64,000 bases of DNA from a virus. Lineage: Duplodnaviria; Caudoviricetes. Shown here one piece after another: positions 4,527 through 43,203 of this stretch. Location: IMG/VR virus record IMGVR_UViG_3300026549_000039, positions 64,001 through 128,000 of that record. One strand, 5' to 3'. A program made the translations under genes and the position numbers. The notes under the pieces were generated by a model, which was not told the origin of the DNA, searched no databases, and was given only the letters and a program-made list of their open reading frames with translations. Positions within the stretch are counted from its first letter, which is position 1; each line of letters opens with the position of its first letter.

Positions 4527-4721
4527 ATGGCAATAGGAAGACGAGTCAAAGGCAAATCAAGTAAAAAGCGTGACGAGAAAAGCCAGAGTCTGTCTTCTGG
4601 GCGGTCTGCAAAGAACCTTTCCGTTAAGGGAAACGACGCCACAATTCACCAGCGTAAGAACACTCAAAAGAAGTACTACCAGGCCAAGCGCAGAAGTAAC
4701 AGGGACCTGAAAGAGAAGTGA
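4527..4721 (+). CDS. Small highly basic protein
   Basis: 64 aa, very K/R-rich, GGAG RBS. Confidence 0.55.
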   Translation: MAIGRRVKGKSSKKRDEKSQSLSSGRSAKNLSVKGNDATIHQRKNTQKKYYQAKRRSNRDLKEK

Positions 4722-4727
4722 CGTAGG

Positions 4728-5108
4728 ATGGCTAAAGTTTTTGATCCAGGAACCACACCAAGATCTGGGCATCACGGGTTCCCAATACCAGAAGTACTTA
4801 GAGATCTGTTCAATAAAATATTCAGGAAGGAACAGAGCTTCTACACCAGGACAGAAGAACCTGCCTTAATGATACCTGAGTTCAGAACTTACTCATACCG
4901 AAACGTTCCTGTTAAACTGCTGTCCAGGATCATATTCGTCTATGATGATCCCATTATGCCTACAGAAGTGTACACCATACACAGAACAGGCGATGAAGGA
5001 CAGCTCCTTAAGGTAACAAAGGTTCTAACCAACAAGACGTTGGTACAGCTTGGTATTACAGAACCGCCAAATGATGATAAACTATCTCCAGATGCTACAA
5101 ACGTTTAA
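4728..5108 (+). CDS. Hypothetical protein
   Basis: 126-aa ORF continuing the operon up to a terminator. Confidence 0.55.
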   Translation: MAKVFDPGTTPRSGHHGFPIPEVLRDLFNKIFRKEQSFYTRTEEPALMIPEFRTYSYRNVPVKLLSRIIFVYDDPIMPTEVYTIHRTGDEGQLLKVTKVLTNKTLVQLGITEPPNDDKLSPDATNV

Positions 5109-5116
5109 CACAAATA

Positions 5117-5138
5117 AGGCCGGGCGTTTGCCCGGCCT
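5117..5138. terminator. Hairpin between convergent gene blocks
   Basis: AGGCCGGGC-GTTT-GCCCGGCCT. Confidence 0.65.
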
Positions 5139-5226
5139 CACTGTTTTCTACTCCCAATGCTTGCTTAGCCACCAACCATATACCACGCCAATTACAAAGA
5201 TACCAAACTCGCGCCACATGGTCACA

Positions 5227-5754
5227 TCACCAGAAGAACTCAGCAAACCTTGGATCAAAAGTTGGCTGAATACCATACTCGCTCTTTTCAGTTTTGTAAC
5301 GCACAGTATTAAACTGAATCTGGATGTACTCCTGTTTATCATAGTCTTTGGTTTGCCGCCACCACACACCAGACCAGTATTGAAAAATAGCCAACGAGAG
5401 TCCACTAGATATAGTAGTTGCAGTAATATTATAAATTATTTCATCACGCAACAGCGAAGCGTCAATGTGTGTCCTGTTCCCAACCATCCTGTAGCCAAGT
5501 GTCGGGGTAGTACCATACCTAGGTATATCAATGTTGTACAGTGTCAGATTCGTAGATGGATCCCTGCGTCTAGCCAGAGTATCCGAATCAAAGTTAGCAT
5601 ATGACAGCCTTCCAGTCTTTGAGAAAGCAGATAGTGTACCCTCTAGGTACTGAAACAGGTTGTCAGGAGAGTCATTTGGATCTGTCTCAAGAGCCATATC
5701 AGACAGTATAGCTACCCCAGTAAGGTACGTTCCTAGCCTGGCCATGCTCCTCAC
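5227..5754 (-). CDS. Hypothetical protein
   Basis: 175-aa ORF with 4-nt overlap coupling to upstream gene. Confidence 0.55.
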   Translation of the reverse strand: MRSMARLGTYLTGVAILSDMALETDPNDSPDNLFQYLEGTLSAFSKTGRLSYANFDSDTLARRRDPSTNLTLYNIDIPRYGTTPTLGYRMVGNRTHIDASLLRDEIIYNITATTISSGLSLAIFQYWSGVWWRQTKDYDKQEYIQIQFNTVRYKTEKSEYGIQPTFDPRFAEFFW

Positions 5755-6452
5755 CCCACATGATCACTCATGGTGATTATAGCTAGATTTCTTTCTTCAC
5801 CCAGCGCTGTATTCCTTAGCACAACATTCTCACGTACCAGCACCAGACCAGCCTCTTCCAAGAACTCAACCTTGTCCCATATTGGCTGATACTGTTCCGT
5901 CTTCGCTGGAACAAACGCAGTATGACCTGAAGGATCGGCTATGTCATCATTGTACTTATCCTTAATGTAGGTACGCAAGTCTGCAAACGCTGGATCATTA
6001 CCATACTTCAATCGGATCTGATTCAAATAAGACAGCCACAAATAATGAGGGATATGCTCCAGGACACCTTCATCCAAATCAGCAATCAGCTTTGGAATAT
6101 ACTTGTCACCCAAGCTGGTTGCCCTTTGAACCATTGGACCAAGGTTCTTCATTAGAACATTCTTTACCAGAGGTGGTAGAATCATCTTCGGTAGCGTTGG
6201 TACCTTGCGTTCTAGCTTCGCTACTAATGGGGCTAGTTTAGGACTTGTGTAGTCCTTCCTAAACATACGCTGCCTAGTATCTCGAAGGGCTTCCTGTATC
6301 TCTGAAATATACTCTGATACATCGTTCAGTGTAGGATCTCGGTCTGCATCATCAGAGTCCACTTCGTAGCTGGAAGTTTCAGCATCATCAGTAGGCCAAT
6401 TTATATCAGTCTTAGGGTTGCCCTTCCTCTTGTACTTGTCAAACCAACTCAC
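5751..6452 (-). CDS. Hypothetical protein
   Basis: 233-aa ORF coupled to the phosphoesterase gene. Confidence 0.6.
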   Translation of the reverse strand: MSWFDKYKRKGNPKTDINWPTDDAETSSYEVDSDDADRDPTLNDVSEYISEIQEALRDTRQRMFRKDYTSPKLAPLVAKLERKVPTLPKMILPPLVKNVLMKNLGPMVQRATSLGDKYIPKLIADLDEGVLEHIPHYLWLSYLNQIRLKYGNDPAFADLRTYIKDKYNDDIADPSGHTAFVPAKTEQYQPIWDKVEFLEEAGLVLVRENVVLRNTALGEERNLAIITMSDHVG

Positions 6453-20965: not shown

Positions 20966-21025
20966 TTGACAAGTGTAAGTATTTTGCTTACAATATCATT
21001 ATACACCGCAAGGTGAATTTAGCAA
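20966..21025. promoter_or_regulatory. Overlapping divergent sigma70-type promoters with palindromic operator (20975-20991)
   Basis: + strand TTGACA-17-TACAAT (20966-20994); - strand TTGCTA-16-TATAAT (21025-20998); GTAAGTATTTTGCTTAC. Confidence 0.75.
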
Positions 21026-23543: not shown

Positions 23544-23831
23544 ATGGGGGATCGTATGTACCGAGCAACGTTATCCATCAGGAAGACGGTAGACTTGTGG
23601 TCAACTATTGATGTTTTGGTTGATAGTGAGACTGAGATGGGTGCTGGAATCAAGTTGTCCGAGCTAATTGCAGAATTTGAGAATACTGCAACTTACGACG
23701 ACGCTACCGGCCTGGATGAGTTACTCTGTGATTCTGATTTTGATCGTAATGCAGATGAGAAATACGATGTTGTGACTACAGAGTACAAAATAGAAGTAGA
23801 GTCTATCGTTGAAGAGGACGAGCTGGAATGA
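23544..23831 (+). CDS. Small acidic hypothetical protein
   Basis: 95 aa, D/E-rich. Confidence 0.5.
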   Translation: MGDRMYRATLSIRKTVDLWSTIDVLVDSETEMGAGIKLSELIAEFENTATYDDATGLDELLCDSDFDRNADEKYDVVTTEYKIEVESIVEEDELE

Positions 23832-26032
23832 TCCGGTCAATATCAGTAGCTAATCTTGGTCCATTTAAGGGTGAGCAACACGTAGATCTCAAACCAGGAA
23901 TACTATCTGTTGAAGGTAGGTATGTTGACAAACCGGGTGAGTCAAACCGGTCTGGTAAGTCGGCATTCATAGACCTAATAAGGTTTGGGTACTTTGGGGT
24001 GCATCGCCATAGGTCTGTACAGAATTACATACATAGGGGTGCTGATACCAGAAACGACCCAATCTACCTGTCTATGGAAGTTGAAGACCCAAACGGCGAT
24101 GTGTACCACATAATACGTGAGTTTGATTACAACAAGCAGGGATTCACCACGAGAATACCAGAGATGGGTGACATTGTTACTCAGATGAAGCAGCCTGAGC
24201 TCCAGCGTTATATAGAGGATAAGCTGCTTGGGTGTTCCTACAATGATGCCATCAAAACATGGATGGTACTACAGGATGACGCTAGAGGACTGATGAACCT
24301 ATCGGTTGCTGATAGGAAGAGGTTTCTACTGGACTTATTCTCTCCGACTATGTTTCCTTGGGACAGCTACTTCTCAGAGGCATCAGCAAGGTACATATTA
24401 TGCAAAACTAGACAGTCTGAGATAATGTCCAGGATAAACAACCTACGCAATAGGCTGTACGAGATATCTGACATGGACTTCTCTTCTCTACTAGCTTCTA
24501 CGAAGGCTGAAATACTAGAGCTGCAACAGCGGAGAGACAAGGTTGTACAGCTTATTACAGACCTCGAAGCTACATCGTCTCCAAAGGCCCTAGATGATCT
24601 GGCTAGGAAGGTAGCACAGTACAATAAGAAGCTGAACGATATGCACGCTTCGTTGCTCTTGTCCAGGAAGACCCTAGACAAACTAGAGCATGATGTTGAG
24701 AGGTTGAACTCTAGGAACCAATCTCTTGCTGACCTACAGACTAAGAAGAAGAAACTAGAAGACAAAGCAGAAAAACTTAATATTAAGGGGGTCGAGGATG
24801 AGTATGGTAGGGTCTATGACCAGCACAAAGAGCTAAGCACACAGCTTAGCCTTGATGTACAGAAGTTCAAGCAGATTGACAAGTTCAGGGGATTGTGCCC
24901 GATTACACACGAGGATTGCCCGTCTGGCAGCGATATTAAAAAGGCTAAAGCTGCATTAAAGAAAGCTATAGAGTCAGCTACCGAGCAGGTTGACGCTCTA
25001 CAAACTAAACTTGACAAGCTGGTAGCTGTTATGGATGCTAATGATACTATCCGTAGAGATATGGATGTCATACAGCATAACATAGCAGCTACTGAGGCTG
25101 CTATATCTGCTTTGGATGGCGTTGCTCAGATGTATGAGGAGCACAGAAACCAGAACAAAAAGGATGAGAAGGAGTATGTGCTGTTCAAAGCTGAAGCGGA
25201 TAAGCTATCTAATGAGCTGGAAGCTAGACGGTCAGACCATGATCTTACGCACCATCGTAGGATACGTGAGCTGAAGCAGGAACAGGACACCATTACAAAG
25301 AAGCTGGACGAACTTGATTCTCGTCTGACTACCCTTATAGCTGACCAGCAGCGTAAGGATATACTAGAGCAAGACTTAGCTGACAGCCAGAAGGAGTACA
25401 ACTCTTTAGAGCTTAGGGAAAGGGCTTTGAGAAGCCTGAAGCCTATGCTTAGTCAGGATGGTATACCATTCACAAACCTGCTATCGTCGATCATAGACTT
25501 TGAAGCTGAGATCAACAAGGCGCTGGTGGATCTAGGAGACGACCTACTAATTGACATCGAACCCTATACCATTACCAATTCGCGGGCTCCTATTTGTCAG
25601 GTATGTGGGTATGAGTTTGGTAAGAGCCAAGCAAGCAAGTGTCCTGTAACCACTTGCCAGGCTCCTAGAGAGTATAAGAAAAAAGAAACACTAGAAGTTC
25701 GCATGAAGGGGCGTGTTTTTGATGTAGATTTCGACGAAGATTCTGGTGGTGGGAAGCAGAAGGTAGCTATGGCTATCAGGTTGGCCCTATTTAATGTTCT
25801 CAGGGATAGAGGCCTGTTAGGAAATGTGGATATGTGGTGCTTAGATGAGATATTTGCACCGCTGTCTGATGTAGGAAAGTTCAACATGCTTAACTCGTTT
25901 GAAAGTGTCTGCAACCAGTACAATATCAGGCAGCTGTTCTTAGTAACGCATACTGACATAAGCTCCATCATTCCACCTGCTGTTATAATCCAACGGTCAG
26001 ATTCAGACCAGGAATCAAGAATAATATCATAG
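23828..26032 (+). CDS. sbcC: Rad50/SbcC/gp46-like SMC ATPase
   Basis: ESNRSGKS Walker A, Q-loop VLQDD, long coiled coil with CPIT hook-like centre, DSGGGK signature, LDE Walker B, VTH. Confidence 0.88.
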   Translation: MIRSISVANLGPFKGEQHVDLKPGILSVEGRYVDKPGESNRSGKSAFIDLIRFGYFGVHRHRSVQNYIHRGADTRNDPIYLSMEVEDPNGDVYHIIREFDYNKQGFTTRIPEMGDIVTQMKQPELQRYIEDKLLGCSYNDAIKTWMVLQDDARGLMNLSVADRKRFLLDLFSPTMFPWDSYFSEASARYILCKTRQSEIMSRINNLRNRLYEISDMDFSSLLASTKAEILELQQRRDKVVQLITDLEATSSPKALDDLARKVAQYNKKLNDMHASLLLSRKTLDKLEHDVERLNSRNQSLADLQTKKKKLEDKAEKLNIKGVEDEYGRVYDQHKELSTQLSLDVQKFKQIDKFRGLCPITHEDCPSGSDIKKAKAALKKAIESATEQVDALQTKLDKLVAVMDANDTIRRDMDVIQHNIAATEAAISALDGVAQMYEEHRNQNKKDEKEYVLFKAEADKLSNELEARRSDHDLTHHRRIRELKQEQDTITKKLDELDSRLTTLIADQQRKDILEQDLADSQKEYNSLELRERALRSLKPMLSQDGIPFTNLLSSIIDFEAEINKALVDLGDDLLIDIEPYTITNSRAPICQVCGYEFGKSQASKCPVTTCQAPREYKKKETLEVRMKGRVFDVDFDEDSGGGKQKVAMAIRLALFNVLRDRGLLGNVDMWCLDEIFAPLSDVGKFNMLNSFESVCNQYNIRQLFLVTHTDISSIIPPAVIIQRSDSDQESRIIS

Positions 26033-27718: not shown

Positions 27719-29794
27719 TTGGGCACGACAGATTTGGTGGCTAAAAGCTATAATGGTTCGAGGTCGGCGCAGATAATAAGCAGTGATATCTGCGCCTTTA
27801 TTCTACTACAAGGTGGCGGAACAATCATGTCATTATCAAAGGAAACACTAGTCAGCATGGGTTACAACACATCGTTCTCGGAAAAGATAGCAGGATATCC
27901 AGACAGGCTTTTGGAGTTGAACGGGATCTCAGACCATCAATTAGGATTGGCTCAGTTCTATGAGAATCTAATGAAGCGAACGTCTAGGCTGGCTGATACC
28001 TCGGTGGACTCTAATGCTAACGTAGGTAGCAAAACGACAGCAGCTATCCTCCAGGAGATTGACAAGCCAAGGCAGAGGTTGTACGCATTGAATGGTATTT
28101 GGGAGTACCTGATTAAGAATGACGGGTATGAGCGTGCTGTAGAGGTAATGGACGCTATAATCGGGGGCTTGATCTACCCGCATGACTTACCACTGTTCAT
28201 GTATGACCACTACTGTTATGCCTTCTCTGCTGAGAAACTCATGAAGGATGGCCTGCCGTTTATCCCAAGGCTACCGTCTAAACCAGCCCAGCACGCACGC
28301 AGCTTCATCGCACATGTAAACCAGTTTATCCAGTTTGCGTCAAACCATCAGGCTGGTGCAACTGCTATACCTGGATTGTGGGTAGCTTATGCGTACTACG
28401 CCAAGAAGGACGGCCTCACACTGGAAGGCAGGCAGCAGGATTATCAGGAGTTCATATTTACCTGCAATCAGCCTGTTAGATACTCAGCTCAGAGCCCGTT
28501 CGTGAACGTATCACTCCTGGATAAGTACTACATGCAGGGGCAGTATGGTGATATCTACGACGAGGACGGGCGCGTTGTGGGTCACAAGTTCACCTATCCT
28601 GACGGTTCTTTACCAGACTGGAAGTTTGTGGATCAGATCCAGCGGGAATTTTATGAGTACTTTAATAAGTGTATTGATGACAATGGCAGACCTATTACCT
28701 TCCCTGTTATAACAGCGGCTATGATTAAGGACAAGAAGACTGGGATGCCTGCTGATAGGGAGTTCCTAGAGTGGTTCTGTAGCGAGAATGTCAAGCATTG
28801 TTCTGCAAACATACTTCTTAACTACGATCCGAACAACTTTGCGTCTTGCTGCCGTATGATGAACTACACTGATCCGCTCAAGTACACAAATTCGTTTGGA
28901 GCAGGCGGAGATTCTATTGGATCTTGGGGTGTGGCCACATTGAATTTGGCCGGAATTGCAGGAGAAGGGTTGAAAAAGGACAAAACGGGCTACTCCTACT
29001 CTAAGTTCCTGTCAGACGTTAAGAAGTATGCTGATATGGCTCGCGAGATTGTGGGCATACGCAGGCATTATGTCACCCAGAATATCCAGCGTGGTCTACT
29101 TCCTCTCTTCACGATGGGGTATGTAAAGCCCGAATCGCTGTACTTAACAGTGGGTATTGTTGGGGCATATGAAGCATTGGAGCAGCTTGGCTGTTTCAGC
29201 AGGGATAGAGTTGATAACTGCCTGCATTACTATGTTGACATGCTGGATGTGCTTAATGCCGGTAACAAGGAAGCCAATGATGAGCAGACCAATACTATCT
29301 ACAACCTTGAGCAGGTTCCGGCAGAGAATGCAGCTGTCAAGCTGGCTACGATTGACAGAGTGTTGGGTAGGCACGATTACCAGCTCCTGTCCAACCAGTG
29401 GCTTCCTCTATCCTACAACACAGACATCTTCTCTAGGTTGGAGGTATCTGGCGCTTTGGATACAGCTATGTCTGGCGGCGCTATCGTTCACATATCAGCG
29501 GGGCAGGAGCTAGATGCTAACTCGATGCAGTCCCTTATAGACTATGCGTCAAAGACAGAGAATGTCTACTTTGCTGTTAATTATATGTTTAGCTGCTGCC
29601 ATGATTGCCACTCTATATCTCACTCGGCAAACACTATAGCGTGCCCAAAGTGCGGTGGGAGCAATCTTGATAAGTTTACTAGGGTAGTAGGCTTTATTAC
29701 ACCCCTCGATACCTGGTCCACCCCTAGAAAGGAGGAGAAGAGGATCCAGCTGGATTTACAGATGAAGAATTATGTAGCAGGCAGGGCAGGTTAG
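27719..29794 (+). CDS. nrdD: Anaerobic ribonucleoside-triphosphate reductase (class III), no ATP cone; likely start 27827
   Basis: IYPHDL, QSPFVN, TFPV, SCCR finger loop, EQVPAE, SGGAI, CxxC..CxxC, TRVVGF glycyl-radical motif. Confidence 0.93.
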   Translation: MGTTDLVAKSYNGSRSAQIISSDICAFILLQGGGTIMSLSKETLVSMGYNTSFSEKIAGYPDRLLELNGISDHQLGLAQFYENLMKRTSRLADTSVDSNANVGSKTTAAILQEIDKPRQRLYALNGIWEYLIKNDGYERAVEVMDAIIGGLIYPHDLPLFMYDHYCYAFSAEKLMKDGLPFIPRLPSKPAQHARSFIAHVNQFIQFASNHQAGATAIPGLWVAYAYYAKKDGLTLEGRQQDYQEFIFTCNQPVRYSAQSPFVNVSLLDKYYMQGQYGDIYDEDGRVVGHKFTYPDGSLPDWKFVDQIQREFYEYFNKCIDDNGRPITFPVITAAMIKDKKTGMPADREFLEWFCSENVKHCSANILLNYDPNNFASCCRMMNYTDPLKYTNSFGAGGDSIGSWGVATLNLAGIAGEGLKKDKTGYSYSKFLSDVKKYADMAREIVGIRRHYVTQNIQRGLLPLFTMGYVKPESLYLTVGIVGAYEALEQLGCFSRDRVDNCLHYYVDMLDVLNAGNKEANDEQTNTIYNLEQVPAENAAVKLATIDRVLGRHDYQLLSNQWLPLSYNTDIFSRLEVSGALDTAMSGGAIVHISAGQELDANSMQSLIDYASKTENVYFAVNYMFSCCHDCHSISHSANTIACPKCGGSNLDKFTRVVGFITPLDTWSTPRKEEKRIQLDLQMKNYVAGRAG

Positions 29795-29807
29795 GTGGTG
29801 TACTACC

Positions 29808-30362
29808 ATGTTTTATGATTTGACGGTAGACTATGGAGGAGTGAACTTCCCGAAACCATATAGGAAGAAAGATGTTATCTATATCGGCTTCATAGCTGTT
29901 TTTTCTGGGTGCAATAGAGCTGTTAGTGGGAATCCGTGTCCTGATTGCCAAAACTCTAGCCTGTGGGAACATGCTTGTAAGTCTAGGTTTGATTCTATAA
30001 AGGATATAACAGCATTTGTACATAAGAAGGTTAGCATATTTGATGGAATCAGTGCTGGTAGAGCAGTAAAGTACTTCTACGCTGTTCTAGGTGGGGAGCC
30101 TCTGGATCAAGAAGCTGATGACCTGCGCATTGTGCATAGAGCAGTGCGAGCTGGTTTGGAAAGGCCGGTTCCTAGTGTGCTGTTTACAGGTTACTCATCA
30201 TTGAACCAGAACGGTATAAACGATGGAACCAAGCGTTACGTACTCGAACAGATCAATTATGTTAAGGTTGGGTCGTACCTAGGCGACGCCTACAAGGTTG
30301 ATGGCCTAGAATCTGGACTAGCAACAGCTAACCAGCGTTGGATAATAGTAAACCCTATTTAG
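29808..30362 (+). CDS. nrdG: Class III RNR activase (radical SAM)
   Basis: FSGC..CPDCQN, LGGEPLDQ, FTGY, ATANQ; adjacent to nrdD. Confidence 0.85.
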   Translation: MFYDLTVDYGGVNFPKPYRKKDVIYIGFIAVFSGCNRAVSGNPCPDCQNSSLWEHACKSRFDSIKDITAFVHKKVSIFDGISAGRAVKYFYAVLGGEPLDQEADDLRIVHRAVRAGLERPVPSVLFTGYSSLNQNGINDGTKRYVLEQINYVKVGSYLGDAYKVDGLESGLATANQRWIIVNPI

Positions 30363-30418: not shown

Positions 30419-30781
30419 TTACTCAGCGTTCAGGTCTGCCTTCAGGGCTTTACCGACCTTCAGCCTCACCGTCCACTGGGCCGGAATGTCGATAATCTCA
30501 TCAGGTTTCTGAGGATTCCTTCCCTGCCTCGGCTGGCGGTAAACAGGCTCCAAGAGGAACAGGTTGTGGGCCGACACAGACTTCTTTTTGGCTAGAGCGT
30601 CACCAATGCATCTGAACGTAGACCTCACGACATCAGCAATCTGAGCCTTAGTAAGATCGTGGTCAGTGCTGGAGGAAACAAGATTTGCCACCTCGTCAAT
30701 CAGCTCACCGTACCCCAATCTCCCATTCAGCTCTTTTGTCGCGGCCTTCTTGGGCTCAACTTTCTTTGCCATAGCAACCAC
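30419..30781 (-). CDS. hup: HU/IHF-family DNA-binding protein
   Basis: ELIDEVA..LTKAQIADVV..F..IGDAL...RQPRQGRNPQ..EIIDIPA...VGKALK. Confidence 0.88.
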   Translation of the reverse strand: MVAMAKKVEPKKAATKELNGRLGYGELIDEVANLVSSSTDHDLTKAQIADVVRSTFRCIGDALAKKKSVSAHNLFLLEPVYRQPRQGRNPQKPDEIIDIPAQWTVRLKVGKALKADLNAE

Positions 30782-30897: not shown

Positions 30898-30932
30898 TTG
30901 ACAAAGCAGTCATGGGTAAGTATAATACTTAC
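30898..30932 (+). promoter_or_regulatory. Consensus sigma70 promoter with palindromic operator over -10
   Basis: TTGACA-17-TATAAT; GTAAGTATAATACTTAC at 30916-30932. Confidence 0.85.
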
Positions 30933-30968
30933 ATCGTCCAGTGAGGGACGGAGTATTGGGGGTTAAAT

Positions 30969-33391: not shown

Positions 33392-34630
33392 ATGAGTTTA
33401 CTTTGTGGAGGAGAAGCTGGGCGCAAGCCCATGAAGAGGTCTGGGTTCCAGGGTGCAGTGGCTGGTGCTTCTAGCGTGAAAGCAAAAGCTCAGGCGCAGG
33501 CCGGTAGTGGTATCATCAATATGAACAAGCTGAAGAACCTACAGGCCAAAAAGAAGGCTACCTTGGAGGCCTACAAGCTGAATGCCAACGGCCTGTCCAG
33601 GATGCGCTTAGTCAAGCCTATTGGTAACGATGACGTTCCTATGATGTCTGCGGATGCTCACTGGCTTCCTGTTGTGAACGATGATGGCAAGACGATCAAG
33701 CGCAAGGTCTACTGCTACTCGCAGTTTGGGTTTGACTTCTGCCCCATTTGCGCTTTGCATGATGCTCTTAGTGCTGCATCTGACCAGGCTTTGGTGGCTG
33801 ATGGCGATATACTGAAAGCATCTAACAAGTGGGCAGCCTACATCATCAACAGGGACTACATGGCTGGAGCTGAGGACCCTATTTCTGCTCACGACCCGCG
33901 CCAGGACAAGGTTGTGCTGTTCGACAACATGAACCCGAAGATTGCGGACGACATCATCAAGCATCTTGGTATGCGTGTATGGGGTGATGCTTCCGATCCT
34001 GTAAATGGGTATGACTTCGAGATTGAGGGTACACCCAGCGGAAAGATTTTCAACAACTACAAGGTGTCTGACTACGCCCTGTCTCCTATACCCAAGGATT
34101 TCTCGCCGCCCTATGATGAGGCGCTGCTGAAGAACATGAAGCCTCTCTCGGAGATCGTGAAGTACATGCCTAGGAACGATCTACAGAAGATCTTTGATCC
34201 CATTCTGGTAAGCCTCCAACAGGAGAGCGAAGAGGCTGCGGCTATTGTCGCTGCGTTCTCTGATGAGTATAATCAGATGCTGAGAGCCATCGAGGCTGGT
34301 CCTGAAGTCGAGATCGACGAGCAGGAGGTTATCGAGGTGCAGGGAGGTGAGGAGGATGCCGAAGGGCAGGACAATACACTCGAACGGGGGGCTGAAAGTG
34401 ACAGTGAAGCACCCGACGATGAGATCGGGGTCGAAAGCGATGCCGAAGGGGAAAGCGCTGAGGAAGATGCAGAACCTGGAGAGGAAGTCGAGGAACCCTT
34501 AGAGGAAGATGCTGACAATGAGGACGAAGAGGAGGCACCCAAGCAGACTGCTAAGCCTGCTCCATCTACTACCAATAGGAATGCAGCACTCCTGGGCGAG
34601 TTAAAGAACATAGGCAAGAAGAGTAAGTGA
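33392..34630 (+). CDS. gp32-like single-stranded DNA-binding protein
   Basis: HW, CPIC, DASDPVNGYDFEI motifs; long acidic C-terminal tail. Confidence 0.72.
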   Translation: MSLLCGGEAGRKPMKRSGFQGAVAGASSVKAKAQAQAGSGIINMNKLKNLQAKKKATLEAYKLNANGLSRMRLVKPIGNDDVPMMSADAHWLPVVNDDGKTIKRKVYCYSQFGFDFCPICALHDALSAASDQALVADGDILKASNKWAAYIINRDYMAGAEDPISAHDPRQDKVVLFDNMNPKIADDIIKHLGMRVWGDASDPVNGYDFEIEGTPSGKIFNNYKVSDYALSPIPKDFSPPYDEALLKNMKPLSEIVKYMPRNDLQKIFDPILVSLQQESEEAAAIVAAFSDEYNQMLRAIEAGPEVEIDEQEVIEVQGGEEDAEGQDNTLERGAESDSEAPDDEIGVESDAEGESAEEDAEPGEEVEEPLEEDADNEDEEEAPKQTAKPAPSTTNRNAALLGELKNIGKKSK

Positions 34631-40536: not shown

Positions 40537-42354
40537 ATGCCGATAGCATGTCCCATGAAAATTATGGTTACTGTTCCTGATAAAGCTGCTCAGTTTGCTT
40601 TGCAAGCAAAAGGTGCAGAAGGTCTCCACTGGCTGGAAGACTCTACAGGTAACCCTGTTGTAGCTAAGCAAGACGGATCCTATTGGTATGCGAAGTGGGA
40701 TAGCAATAAGCAAAAATTTGAGCCCGATGAACAGTTTACCTGGGAATCTAGGAAGCGTAGCCTTAAACGCAGAGGTGGTCATATAACAAGGCAGCAGACC
40801 CAACAGCATATGCAAAGCTGGACTGAGAGAATGATCGAGGGTGGTGAAGATTTTCGTAGAAAGTTCGGCATTGGGTCACCAAGATCACTAAATAAGGCCC
40901 CAATATTAAGAACACCGGGCTCACCACCACCAGCAGGGAGCATTAAACGGAAGATATCTGTTGTCTATGTTAAGTTCCAGGATAGTGCTAGTCTTAGCAT
41001 AGCAGATATAACAGACGCATATATACAGGATGTATTCTTCAATAAATCAAGGTTTGGATCACTAGCCCATTACTATCACACTCAAACCCAGGGGATCATA
41101 AGCATAGAGAGTGCTGGTATATATAGAGTAACACTAAATAGTAATGCCATTGGCCTGGCAGGCGATACACTTACATCGGCAGATAATGTGAATGTTAAGA
41201 CAGATTGGATAGATGCTGCTGTTGCACAGGCGCTGACGGTTGGTATGCCAACACCAGAACCTACTGGTGGGCCCATATGTCTTCTGCATGGGTATGAATC
41301 ATCCTATGGCAATGCTGACCCAAGACTACCGACACCAAGAGTCTGGGGTCATGCTTACTTCTCCGGCTCATCCATGTTTGGTGCTTATCATTATGACCTA
41401 AACACAGGAACAGCAACTCCATTTAATAATGGTATTGTTATACATGAGTGTGGTCATTGCTTATTTGAGCTGCTAGATTTATATGATATAACACCGAGAT
41501 CTGCTACACAACAACCCGACACTAAAGGATTAGGACATTGGTCTGTAATGGCAAGTGGTAGCTGGGGCTACTCAGCTGCCAATCCAAAACAAGGAGATGT
41601 ACCAACAGGCCTGGATGCTTACAGTCTGTTTCAGATTAACCCTCTCATACTAGACCTAGATGACGCTTCTGGATCTGTACAGCATACCAGTCCATATACA
41701 CCTCATCTGATTAAGGGTAGGCGTGCGGAACAGGGATCACAGAAGGTTGATGAACTTGTATTTACACAGGTGCGATGCTTTAAGGACTATGACGTTGGTA
41801 TCCCTGATATGTTTGGTGGGACTGCTACACCTGGTATACTGGTTGAAGCACTCAACACTGACAGGTCCAATGTTCGTGGCTATGATGCACCCATAGCTAT
41901 ACTAGAGGCGCATGGGGGTACACAAAATCTACGGACTACTACTAAAGCAAACCAGAATGATGGCGATCTTGGAGACCTATTTGGTCCGACCAAAACGAGT
42001 GTTGGAAAGAGTGTAAGTGACCCTAGTGTGGAAATGGGTACCAACTTCGATATCGGATACCCAAGCCCGACTTGGACCGTAAGTGGTACAGACTGTGGTT
42101 TTGATATTGTAAACATAACAGCTGACTCTAGTTGTACGGGTAGCTATGAGATAACTTTTGATGGTACACATGACCAGGATGCCTACTATGTTGATGCCCG
42201 TGGACGCTACCAAAAAGCATCATGGGGATCTGGTGGAGGAGGTGGTGAACCAGAACCGGAGCCAGAGCCTGAGCCAACCCCACCTATACCAGCAAAGTGT
42301 GATCGACCTAGAATGTACCGACTGAGAGCTGCTACAGTTGTCACACCACCTTAA
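40537..42354 (+). CDS. M6 family (immune inhibitor A-like) zinc metalloprotease
   Basis: VVYVKFQD, GSLAHYY, HECGHCLFELLDLYD, GLGHWSVMASGSWG; PE-repeat linker near C-terminus. Confidence 0.85.
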   Translation: MPIACPMKIMVTVPDKAAQFALQAKGAEGLHWLEDSTGNPVVAKQDGSYWYAKWDSNKQKFEPDEQFTWESRKRSLKRRGGHITRQQTQQHMQSWTERMIEGGEDFRRKFGIGSPRSLNKAPILRTPGSPPPAGSIKRKISVVYVKFQDSASLSIADITDAYIQDVFFNKSRFGSLAHYYHTQTQGIISIESAGIYRVTLNSNAIGLAGDTLTSADNVNVKTDWIDAAVAQALTVGMPTPEPTGGPICLLHGYESSYGNADPRLPTPRVWGHAYFSGSSMFGAYHYDLNTGTATPFNNGIVIHECGHCLFELLDLYDITPRSATQQPDTKGLGHWSVMASGSWGYSAANPKQGDVPTGLDAYSLFQINPLILDLDDASGSVQHTSPYTPHLIKGRRAEQGSQKVDELVFTQVRCFKDYDVGIPDMFGGTATPGILVEALNTDRSNVRGYDAPIAILEAHGGTQNLRTTTKANQNDGDLGDLFGPTKTSVGKSVSDPSVEMGTNFDIGYPSPTWTVSGTDCGFDIVNITADSSCTGSYEITFDGTHDQDAYYVDARGRYQKASWGSGGGGGEPEPEPEPEPTPPIPAKCDRPRMYRLRAATVVTPP

Positions 42355-42360
42355 ATAACG

Positions 42361-42401
42361 AAAAAAGAAGCACCGGCATGGGAGAAACCGGTGCTTCTTT
42401 T
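42361..42401. terminator. Bidirectional intrinsic terminator
   Basis: AAAAAAGAAGCACCGG-loop-CCGGTGCTTCTTTT. Confidence 0.85.
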
Positions 42402-42495
42402 AATGCGCGGCGGGAGCGCATGTCACAGAGTTTTGTAATGAAGAGAACGATAACTAGAAATGGGAACCTTGGTCAATACACGCCAACACTCGATA
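42361..42495 (-). ncRNA. Predicted ~135-nt small RNA
   Basis: Bounded by a consensus promoter and a U-tailed terminator; no RBS-led ORF; internal hairpin 42403-42421. Confidence 0.55.
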
Positions 42496-42530
42496 GTAAG
42501 TATTATACTTACCTTAGTCTCAAATGTCAA
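42496..42530 (-). promoter_or_regulatory. Consensus sigma70 promoter with palindromic operator
   Basis: Minus strand TTGACA(42530-42525)-17-TATAAT(42507-42502); GTAAGTATTATACTTAC 42496-42512. Confidence 0.8.
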
Positions 42531-43155
42531 CAGGCTGAGTGATGTCTGTAAAGAATATGCCAGCCCTACCGGACAGCTTCTGGAAACAAAGAGCCATTAC
42601 CCTTCTTATATCAGGGTGTGCATGAGGATTCTCCATACGCTGCTTGAGGATGTGCCTCCACTGCCGGACGTTGTGGGTGACAACCATATTAACTGCAAGC
42701 GCTTGTGGCAGCACAGCACGAGCAATCTGTGGTTTGACTCCAGCAGCTACCATTTCTTTGTAGGCCTGTATCGCATCCTCTATAGCATCCATCATCCTAA
42801 TGCGGTCGTCGCCGTCTATACCACTAGGAAGAATACACTCCACTTCTTTACCAGCGTAGTTGACATACCTAGTGCTCTCTACAGAGTAAGCAGAGCCGAT
42901 GCGGTGCCTGGTCCACTCAGCCAACAAACCCCTGTCTATACGCACTTCCATAGTGTACGAGACATGCTCCAAAACAGACTCATGACCGTTCGCAATCAGG
43001 TTGGATATGAACTTCTCCTTATGTTCAATATCATTCACAGCTGAGCCGTGCGACTGGTAGCAGGTTCGGCCTGCATAGTTGATGGTGTCAATAGCTTCCA
43101 TGTACGTCATAGGATGAATCAAATCAGCGGCATACTCTACAAAGTGAACAGACAT
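42520..43155 (-). CDS. thyX: Flavin-dependent thymidylate synthase
   Basis: AGRTCYQS, GHESVLEH, EWTRHR, SVESTRYV, ARAVLP. Confidence 0.95.
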   Translation of the reverse strand: MSVHFVEYAADLIHPMTYMEAIDTINYAGRTCYQSHGSAVNDIEHKEKFISNLIANGHESVLEHVSYTMEVRIDRGLLAEWTRHRIGSAYSVESTRYVNYAGKEVECILPSGIDGDDRIRMMDAIEDAIQAYKEMVAAGVKPQIARAVLPQALAVNMVVTHNVRQWRHILKQRMENPHAHPDIRRVMALCFQKLSGRAGIFFTDITQPVDI

Positions 43156-43174: not shown

Positions 43175-43203
43175 GTAAGATGTATGCTTACATATTATAG
43201 CAC
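43175..43203 (-). promoter_or_regulatory. thyX promoter (extended -10) with operator
   Basis: Minus strand TGCTATAAT, then GTAAGCATACATCTTAC (43191-43175), then AGGAGG. Confidence 0.7.

Follow-up and report, generated by a model that had tools for sequence, protein, structure and literature searches.

The analysed window comprises 64,000 nucleotides of a 146-kb IMG/VR record, and the locus considered here lies between two convergent genes. On the minus strand, thyX (42520-43155) encodes a FAD-dependent thymidylate synthase (Pfam Thy1, E 2e-47), and on the plus strand a gene at 40537-42354 encodes an M6-like metalloprotease (Peptidase_M6, E 1.2e-4; its 21.9 bits fall just short of the cut-off of 22). 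At its C terminus (42200-42354, plus), the protease has a variable low-complexity linker that reads G5 and then (EP)n in the window; in the related contig L025, the corresponding tail (4730-4909, minus) consists of (PPD)n and an acidic stretch extending closer to thyX. Between the two genes, the minus strand carries a predicted non-coding transcript of 134-137 nt (42361-42497), which would start at A42497 or A42494. RNA positions are numbered below with 42497 as +1.

The original prediction placed a perfect TTGACA-17-TATAAT promoter upstream of this transcript, with its -35 box in the last thyX codons, and both points were confirmed. The minus-strand codons at the 3' end of thyX, GTT GAC ATT TGA (V-D-I-stop), contain the -35 hexamer TTGACA (42530-42525), and the -10 hexamer TATAAT (42502-42507) follows after a 17-nt spacer. 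No other site between 34 and 53 kb matches the consensus at 12 of 12 positions, and the 64-kb window as a whole contains two exact matches, this promoter being one of them, where shuffled sequences lead one to expect 0.02. The -10 box is covered by an operator of the form GTAAG-N7-CTTAC, a 17-nt palindrome at 42496-42512. Its sequence, GTAAGTATAATACTTAC (42512-42496), is a perfect 8-1-8 palindrome with the -10 box at its centre.

At its other end, the unit stops at a bidirectional intrinsic terminator (42361-42401, both strands) common to the sRNA, thyX and the convergent protease gene. The strong U-tailed hairpin described earlier is indeed present: a 15-bp stem carries a 9-nt loop and is followed by a U6 tail (-23.9 kcal/mol, z -7.5). 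Read on the plus strand, the hairpin has an energy of -21.9 kcal/mol and begins 7 nt past the protease stop codon. A simple terminator scan with a loop limit of 8 nt missed the hairpin because its loop measures 9 nt. From the thyX stop (42520) down to this hairpin (42401-42361), no further terminator is present; thus, the thyX mRNA also ends there, and the body of the sRNA is therefore at the same time the thyX 3'UTR. The description of the RNA as standalone consequently holds for its promoter, which is its own, but not for its body, which lies in the thyX 3'UTR, nor for its terminator, which thyX and the protease gene have in common.

Searches of the 64-kb window for the operator palindrome, allowing up to two mismatches, revealed six strand-matches against 0.19 expected. 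The operator sites in the window number four (42496, 30916, 20975 and 43175), and each overlaps the RNA polymerase footprint of a promoter. An exact copy of GTAAGTATAATACTTAC at 30916-30932 covers the -10 box of the window's second perfect promoter. This twin promoter and operator (30898-30932, plus), with an identical stretch of 18 nt, GGTAAGTATAATACTTAC, drives a 76-aa Cys-rich ORF preceded by a Shine-Dalgarno sequence (SD). The third promoter, TTGACA-17-TACAAT (20966-20994, plus), drives an SD-led gene at ~21046 and carries the operator in its spacer with two mismatches (20975-20991). The promoter of thyX itself (43175-43202, minus) has the extended -10 sequence TGCTATAAT at 43202-43194, directly followed by the GTAAG-N7-CTTAC palindrome at 43191-43175. 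The arms of this last operator, GTAAG and CTTAC, are invariant in 10 of 10 aligned relatives, among them ones whose thyX is merely 58-69% identical, and the seven central bases vary.

From the recurrence of the operator and the conservation of its arms we infer, on good grounds, that a predicted DNA-binding protein controls the sRNA promoter, as had been claimed. Co-regulation, which had been proposed with early genes, is plausible from the sequences because the operator is common to the sRNA promoter and to DNA-metabolism promoters. The thyX promoter and its operator are present even in relatives that lack the sRNA, and this conservation in sRNA-less lineages means that the regulon predates the sRNA gene. 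A gene of the HU/IHF family (Pfam Bac_DNA_binding, E 3.7e-15; 30419-30781, minus) lies divergent from the promoter at 30898; its product could be the operator-binding protein, and phage SPO1 TF1 offers an analogy for an HU/IHF-family protein as the operator binder of a regulon. The 5'UTR of the 30898 gene (30927-30968, plus) and the sRNA (42470-42501, minus) also share the motif ATCG...AGTG just past the start, beyond the 18-nt promoter/operator core, and a start-proximal hairpin occurs in both. These likenesses suggest that the two promoter modules are duplicates.

Another important question is how the locus is built in related phages. No GenBank phage DNA matched the window; the 412-aa protein encoded at 33392-34630 had no tblastn match among GenBank phages, and the thyX relatives there are at most 43% identical. 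Close relatives were likewise absent from IMG/VR, JGI metagenomes and GTDB genomes when queried with thyX, the protease, NrdD and operator patterns. Protein look-ups yielded approximately 30 contigs with the same thyX/protease junction, all from Logan and ENA assemblies; their sample labels, STEW19 and XIEF21 for example, hint at metagenomes from the ruminant gut. The window also contains an NrdD gene (27719-30362, plus; Pfam NRDD, E 1e-80), followed by a probable NrdG-like activase gene, whose match to Fer4_12 is weak and does not reach the Pfam cut-off (E 0.0017); the presence of both genes in a phage points to a strictly anaerobic host.

The copies of the unit fall into allele A (the window, L018, L040 and L042-46), allele B (L016, L020-21, L027-35 and L041), allele C (L019 and L022-23) and allele C' (L036-39). 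The transcript measures ~135 nt in the window and ~92-95 nt in alleles C and C'. In all four alleles, the -10 hexamer is invariant and the operator arms at the sRNA promoter are retained; the -35 hexamer is invariant in the same alleles and in L025, and it is missing from L024 and L026. The terminator is strong in every allele (-24 to -33 kcal/mol), and its stem has survived sequence change: A/B and C differ from each other at three compensatory pairs, and in C' each arm has gained 3 nt, the two insertions matching. In L025 (thyX 68% identical), promoter and operator are degenerate, and a different hairpin without a U-tail is found. Neither the promoter nor the RNA body exists in L024 (thyX 69% identical) and L026 (58%); thus, the ~100-nt body is found solely alongside the promoter. 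The terminator of L024 lies ~20 nt or less past the thyX stop, and in L026 an ankyrin-repeat gene (4639-6039, plus) fills the slot after thyX in place of the sRNA.

Identity between alleles A and B is at least 95% in thyX codons 101-200 and again in the 3' part of the unit, i.e., stem-loop 2 (SL2) and the terminator, versus 62-68% across stem-loop 1 (SL1) and the linker that follows it. In L041 (2100-2300), an A-type thyX end is joined to a B-type RNA, the switch falling at the -35 box, and this chimera indicates that recombination carries the 5' half of the sRNA gene between phage backgrounds as one module. Module exchange is also apparent in L016 and L020 compared with the window, from the promoter spacer to the linker. 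The near-identity of copies within an allele was rejected as a sign of purifying selection: it also spans the adjoining protease end and thus reflects common recombination blocks. The allele diversity amounts to about four independent sequences, and covariation is therefore thin.

Does the unit encode a peptide, or is it conserved as a non-coding element? In line with the predicted ~135 nt devoid of an RBS-led ORF, the sense strand of 42497-42361 contains no SD-led ORF. The sense-strand ORFs of allele A, which comprise 11, 17 and 26 codons, all lack an SD, and no ORF common to alleles A, B and C was found. The GTG at +9 in alleles A and C reads GCG in B, the 17-codon TTG frame of allele A lacks a start codon in B, and the ATG frame of 26 codons passes through the terminator and is shifted by an indel in L016.

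Selection on the unit was assessed by comparing the window (allele A) with L019 (allele C), between which 4-fold degenerate sites are saturated: 19 of 62 are identical in thyX (0.31) and 82 of 208 in the protease gene (0.39). Against this background, the -35 hexamer (6/6), the operator/-10 block GTAAGTATAAT (11/11) and the RNA from +1 to +15 (15/15; ~7e-7 by chance at p = 0.39) are fully identical, as are seven of the eight positions of GUUCCCNU. The promoter spacer between the -35 box and the operator retains 1 of 9 positions, and the linker, compared with that of type C, 11 of 38. The lack of a common ORF together with the conservation of these segments indicates, as far as sequence comparison can tell, that the unit is non-coding and that selection acts on its 5' end, namely on promoter and operator and on the initial ~36 nucleotides of the transcript, whose very start shows strong purifying selection. 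It thus shows what is expected of a phage sRNA, being non-coding and conserved above the neutral rate in related phages. These data support a real promoter and operator under selection, and the promoter is very probably functional.

The fold of the complete 137-nt RNA (-39.9 kcal/mol, z -4.5) owes its stability mostly to the terminator hairpin and the small SL2. The conserved 5' segment from +1 to +15, ACUAUCGAGUGUUGG (42483-42497, minus), overlaps the predicted SL1 (42464-42491, minus), the base of which, GAG(U/C)...GUUC, is conserved and the top of which varies in length and sequence. The two conserved elements, GAG(U/C)GUU at the 5' end and GUUC, can pair in all alleles and thereby close SL1. 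Above this base, allele A has UUGG/CCAA and a 10-nt loop, allele B a 7-bp GC-rich extension, and C and C' a 4-nt loop, with predicted energies of -5.0 (A), -13.3 (B) and -2.1 kcal/mol (C). Shuffled sequences fold equally well in 27% of cases for A and 15% for C, and SL1 is significant in B alone; as a strong structure it was rejected. The few substitutions in SL1 are one-sided, and paired bases stay paired: in B, U.G becomes C-G, and in L031, A-U becomes G.U. By these folding predictions, SL1 is plausible as a real structure, though not proven. A long-range helix between the two ends, in which GAGU-UUG pairs with CAA-ACUC in the minimum-free-energy fold, was discarded, as it is broken in B and absent in C.

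The SL1 base is followed by a stretch of 30-40 nt after GUUC that is predicted to be mostly unpaired and has a pyrimidine content of 62-72% in each of the four alleles; in the window, this pyrimidine-rich linker, also predicted mostly unpaired, occupies 42422-42461 (minus). SL2, in which AUGCGC and GCGCAU enclose a 7-nt loop (42403-42421, minus; -6.5 kcal/mol), exists in alleles A and B only. Its loop reads UCCCGCC, UCCAGCC or UCCCGCA, with UCCA in most B copies. Alleles C and C' have no SL2 and a terminator loop without UCCC, and contain one UCCC in total. In these two alleles (L019:7800-7850, minus; L036:2195-2252, plus), we observed a hairpin, CUCCUUU-AGGU-AAAGGAG, which is partly disrupted in C'. 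Because it takes up part of the terminator's 5' arm, only one of the two can form at a time, and it could be an antiterminator-like alternative or a product of chance.

These details bear directly on the design originally proposed for the RNA, in which UCCC motifs displayed in loops were likened to those of RsaE and RNAIII. The RNA of the window does contain three UCCC motifs, at positions 33, 83 and 115. As many or more are found in 1% of equally long genome segments, and composition-matched shuffles reach this number in 4% of cases. The only conserved UCCC is the one in the invariant GUUCCC (42462-42467, minus), which is located at the junction of stem and linker, outside any loop. The copies in the SL2 and terminator loops vary or vanish; thus, a design with three UCCC loops is limited to some alleles and is not the conserved trait. 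Structural conservation among relatives is similarly divided: the terminator is kept by compensatory changes, but SL2 is confined to A and B, and SL1 reaches significance only in B. Of the interpretation as a whole, the promoter, the operator and the non-coding unit have stood, but neither the UCCC-loop design nor membership of a known family has.

A search of the whole window against Rfam 15 returned no family at the gathering threshold, RsaE/RoxS (RF01820) included, and the best match of a permissive search was ncr1015 (28.2 bits; threshold 60), a score driven by the terminator. We also built a covariance model, R1, from ten distinct copies of the unit. It detected one copy per genome, including a single copy in the 146-kb genome, and no homologues in L024-L026 or at distant thyX loci.

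Potential targets were sought in the phage itself. Nowhere in the 146-kb genome is there a complement to the conserved 5' 15 nt or to GGUUCCCAU, and the genome-wide duplex scan was noisy, with GC-rich regions reaching equal scores. Among 441 SD-preceded translation-initiation regions of the phage, the best lies at 23798-23848 (plus), at the junction of a small acidic ORF and an sbcC-like AAA_23 gene (start 23828), with 39 predicted pairs and -44.0 kcal/mol; the next-best region reaches -36.9. The two genes overlap stop/start as ATGA. The predicted pairing spans the SD and the AUG and involves exactly the A-specific segments of the sRNA. Of 53 dinucleotide-shuffled RNAs, three reach -44 on some initiation region (p ~0.06), and the sbcC-like start region may be regarded as a lead, not a result. 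The thyX ribosome-binding site was rejected as a target, its start region being in the weaker half of the ranking in 8 of 8 genomes, whatever the allele.

Taken together, these observations suggest the following model. Transcription of a candidate RNA would begin at a sigma-70-type consensus promoter hidden within the final thyX codons, and a phage protein recognising GTAAG-N7-CTTAC would gate this promoter, so that the RNA would appear alongside the operator-controlled replication, recombination and nucleotide-metabolism genes. Termination would occur at the intrinsic terminator also used by the thyX mRNA. The arrangement of the operator is identical to that of the 30898 promoter, which drives an ordinary SD-led gene. 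The functional core would be a 5' module comprising +1 to +15, the SL1 base and GUUCCC, together with the unpaired pyrimidine-rich stretch, and the RNA would most likely act in trans by base pairing, its likely partners being purine-rich translation-initiation regions, probably of host mRNAs. The accumulation of the RNA, its action in trans and its pairing partners are what we infer here, and the parts of the model differ in strength. That a discrete regulatory RNA of ~135 nt is made from the sRNA promoter seems to us an evenly balanced proposition; that it pairs with purine-rich initiation regions through the GUUCCC-led pyrimidine stretch is a tentative one. Alleles A, B and C/C' differ in the SL1 top and the linker, and the promoter, the 5' 15 nt and GUUCCC are fixed. 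It is conceivable, if rather unlikely, that we are dealing with a new family of repressor-switched riboregulators with exchangeable specificity alleles, each suited to a target of its own in the host or the phage; the start region of the sbcC-like gene, predicted to pair with A-specific segments, would then be one example.

The same data can be read differently, above all at the level of DNA. The promoter/operator, +1 to +15 and GUUCCC might all be protein-binding sites, with the RNA a mere by-product, and the conservation of +1 to +15 in particular could act at this level. Conservation is confined to the promoter-proximal 36 nt, with the remainder drifting at the neutral rate; the two conserved boxes are 9-10 nt further apart in A/B than in C, approximately one helical turn, and both convergent genes need a terminator in any case. 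However, a binding site needs neither hexamers at perfect consensus nor their optimal 17-nt spacing, relatives without the promoter are also without the 100-nt body, and the conserved 5' and GUUC segments are able to pair in every allele, and we regard the by-product reading as unlikely, though it is the main rival. Under this reading, the site would be an extra operator that titrates or loops the repressor of the regulon, or a roadblock at the thyX end. Protein binding could instead concern the RNA: the SL1 base, GUUCCC and the pyrimidine tract might capture an RNA-binding protein of host or phage. SL1, with its variable top on a conserved base, looks like a hairpin recognised by a protein, and searches of the phage genome gave no base-pairing target, but repeated binding motifs are absent (there is no GGA for CsrA-type proteins), the conserved motif exists in one copy only and there is no candidate protein, so that we consider such a decoy improbable.

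Action in cis on the convergent RecA-to-protease operon, by duplex-dependent decay or transcriptional interference, would exploit the 3' hairpin, whose sequence is the exact complement of the hairpin that terminates the protease mRNA; read-through would be antisense to the protease 3' end. The terminator is bidirectional and common to the genes of both strands, and in L025 a promoter-proximal RNA lacking a U-tail would enter the end of the protease coding region, which extends there towards thyX. Nevertheless, the terminators of A, B, C and C' are strong in the direction of the sRNA, limiting the overlap to ~40 nt of hairpin; bidirectional terminators are commonplace, and conservation in the RNA lies at the 5' end, the overlap at the 3' end. 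We therefore hold an effect in cis to be distinctly unlikely. A leader of the lambda PR'/6S type, in which an antiterminator overrides the terminator to express downstream genes, would accord with the phage setting and with a strong promoter ahead of a short terminated transcript, as well as with the type C hairpin that competes with the terminator 5' arm; yet for more than 7 kb downstream the minus strand consists only of antisense to the protease-to-RecA operon, and, as there is no gene to express, antitermination of this type is rejected as highly improbable. Scarcely any probability attaches to a very small protein either: the three short frames of allele A might be put forward, but they have no SD and none is conserved across A, B and C, and the peptide reading was rejected.

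A putative trans-acting RNA gated by the phage operator remains our preferred reading, and the candidate, judged from its sequence, is a believable new phage regulatory RNA. Validated phage sRNAs are few and come almost entirely from model enterobacterial or staphylococcal phages (PMC12197685). The candidate would add a well-delimited, repressor-gated sRNA from an uncultured phage lineage infecting an anaerobe, probably in the ruminant gut. Its natural allelic variants would serve as ready-made mutants for mapping targets, and the locus would be an example of an independent RNA gene inside a thyX 3'UTR. Such an addition would be incremental unless a target or allele-specific regulation is demonstrated.

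Among known systems, the nearest in layout are Salmonella DapZ and E. coli MicL, sRNAs embedded in 3'UTRs, with a promoter inside the ORF and the terminator of the mRNA in common. The present unit resembles them at the sequence level in that its promoter occupies the end of the preceding ORF, and sRNA and mRNA finish at a common rho-independent terminator. In contrast to them, it is phage-encoded and would be gated by a phage operator, its terminator also serves a convergent gene, and it is not known to be related to them in sequence or to depend on Hfq. RsaE/RoxS (RF01820) and S. aureus RNAIII are C-rich, UCCC-containing sRNAs of Firmicutes. As in these RNAs, pyrimidine- and C-rich stretches are present that are predicted to be unpaired and could pair with SD regions, and allele A has three UCCC motifs; unlike in them, a single UCCC is conserved, and it lies outside any loop. 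The c4 RNA of P1/P7 is processed from an operon transcript and pairs with the nearby ant leader. It shares with our candidate a small size, a phage origin, a repressor-type circuit and discrete alleles differing in short segments, but for the present RNA we found neither a cis nor a phage target. The lambda 6S RNA (PR'-tR') likewise combines a strong promoter with a short terminated RNA, although the unit described here has no downstream genes in its orientation.

The c4 antisense RNA has been tabulated (PMC12197685) and, in addition, the trans-acting sRNAs of phages include lambda PreS/LPR1, VP882 VpdS, Qin DicF and StxS (10.1101/2024.10.31.621285; PMC12197685). These named sRNAs are 50-90 nt long, end at terminators, are expressed in the lytic or early phase and are proposed to pair with host mRNAs (10.1101/2024.10.31.621285; PMC12197685), and lambda PreS/LPR1 is a lytic-cycle sRNA ending at an operon terminator (10.1101/2024.10.31.621285). 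PreS/LPR1, VpdS, DicF and StxS have been detected experimentally and their targets mapped, whereas the present RNA is a prediction from an uncultured phage; it differs from them further in its own consensus promoter and operator and has no sequence similarity to any of them. In biology, the candidate comes nearest to such validated phage sRNAs, lambda PreS/LPR1 among them: it, too, would be a short, terminator-ended phage RNA with a proposed role alongside early functions, and LPR1 likewise ends at the terminator of an operon.
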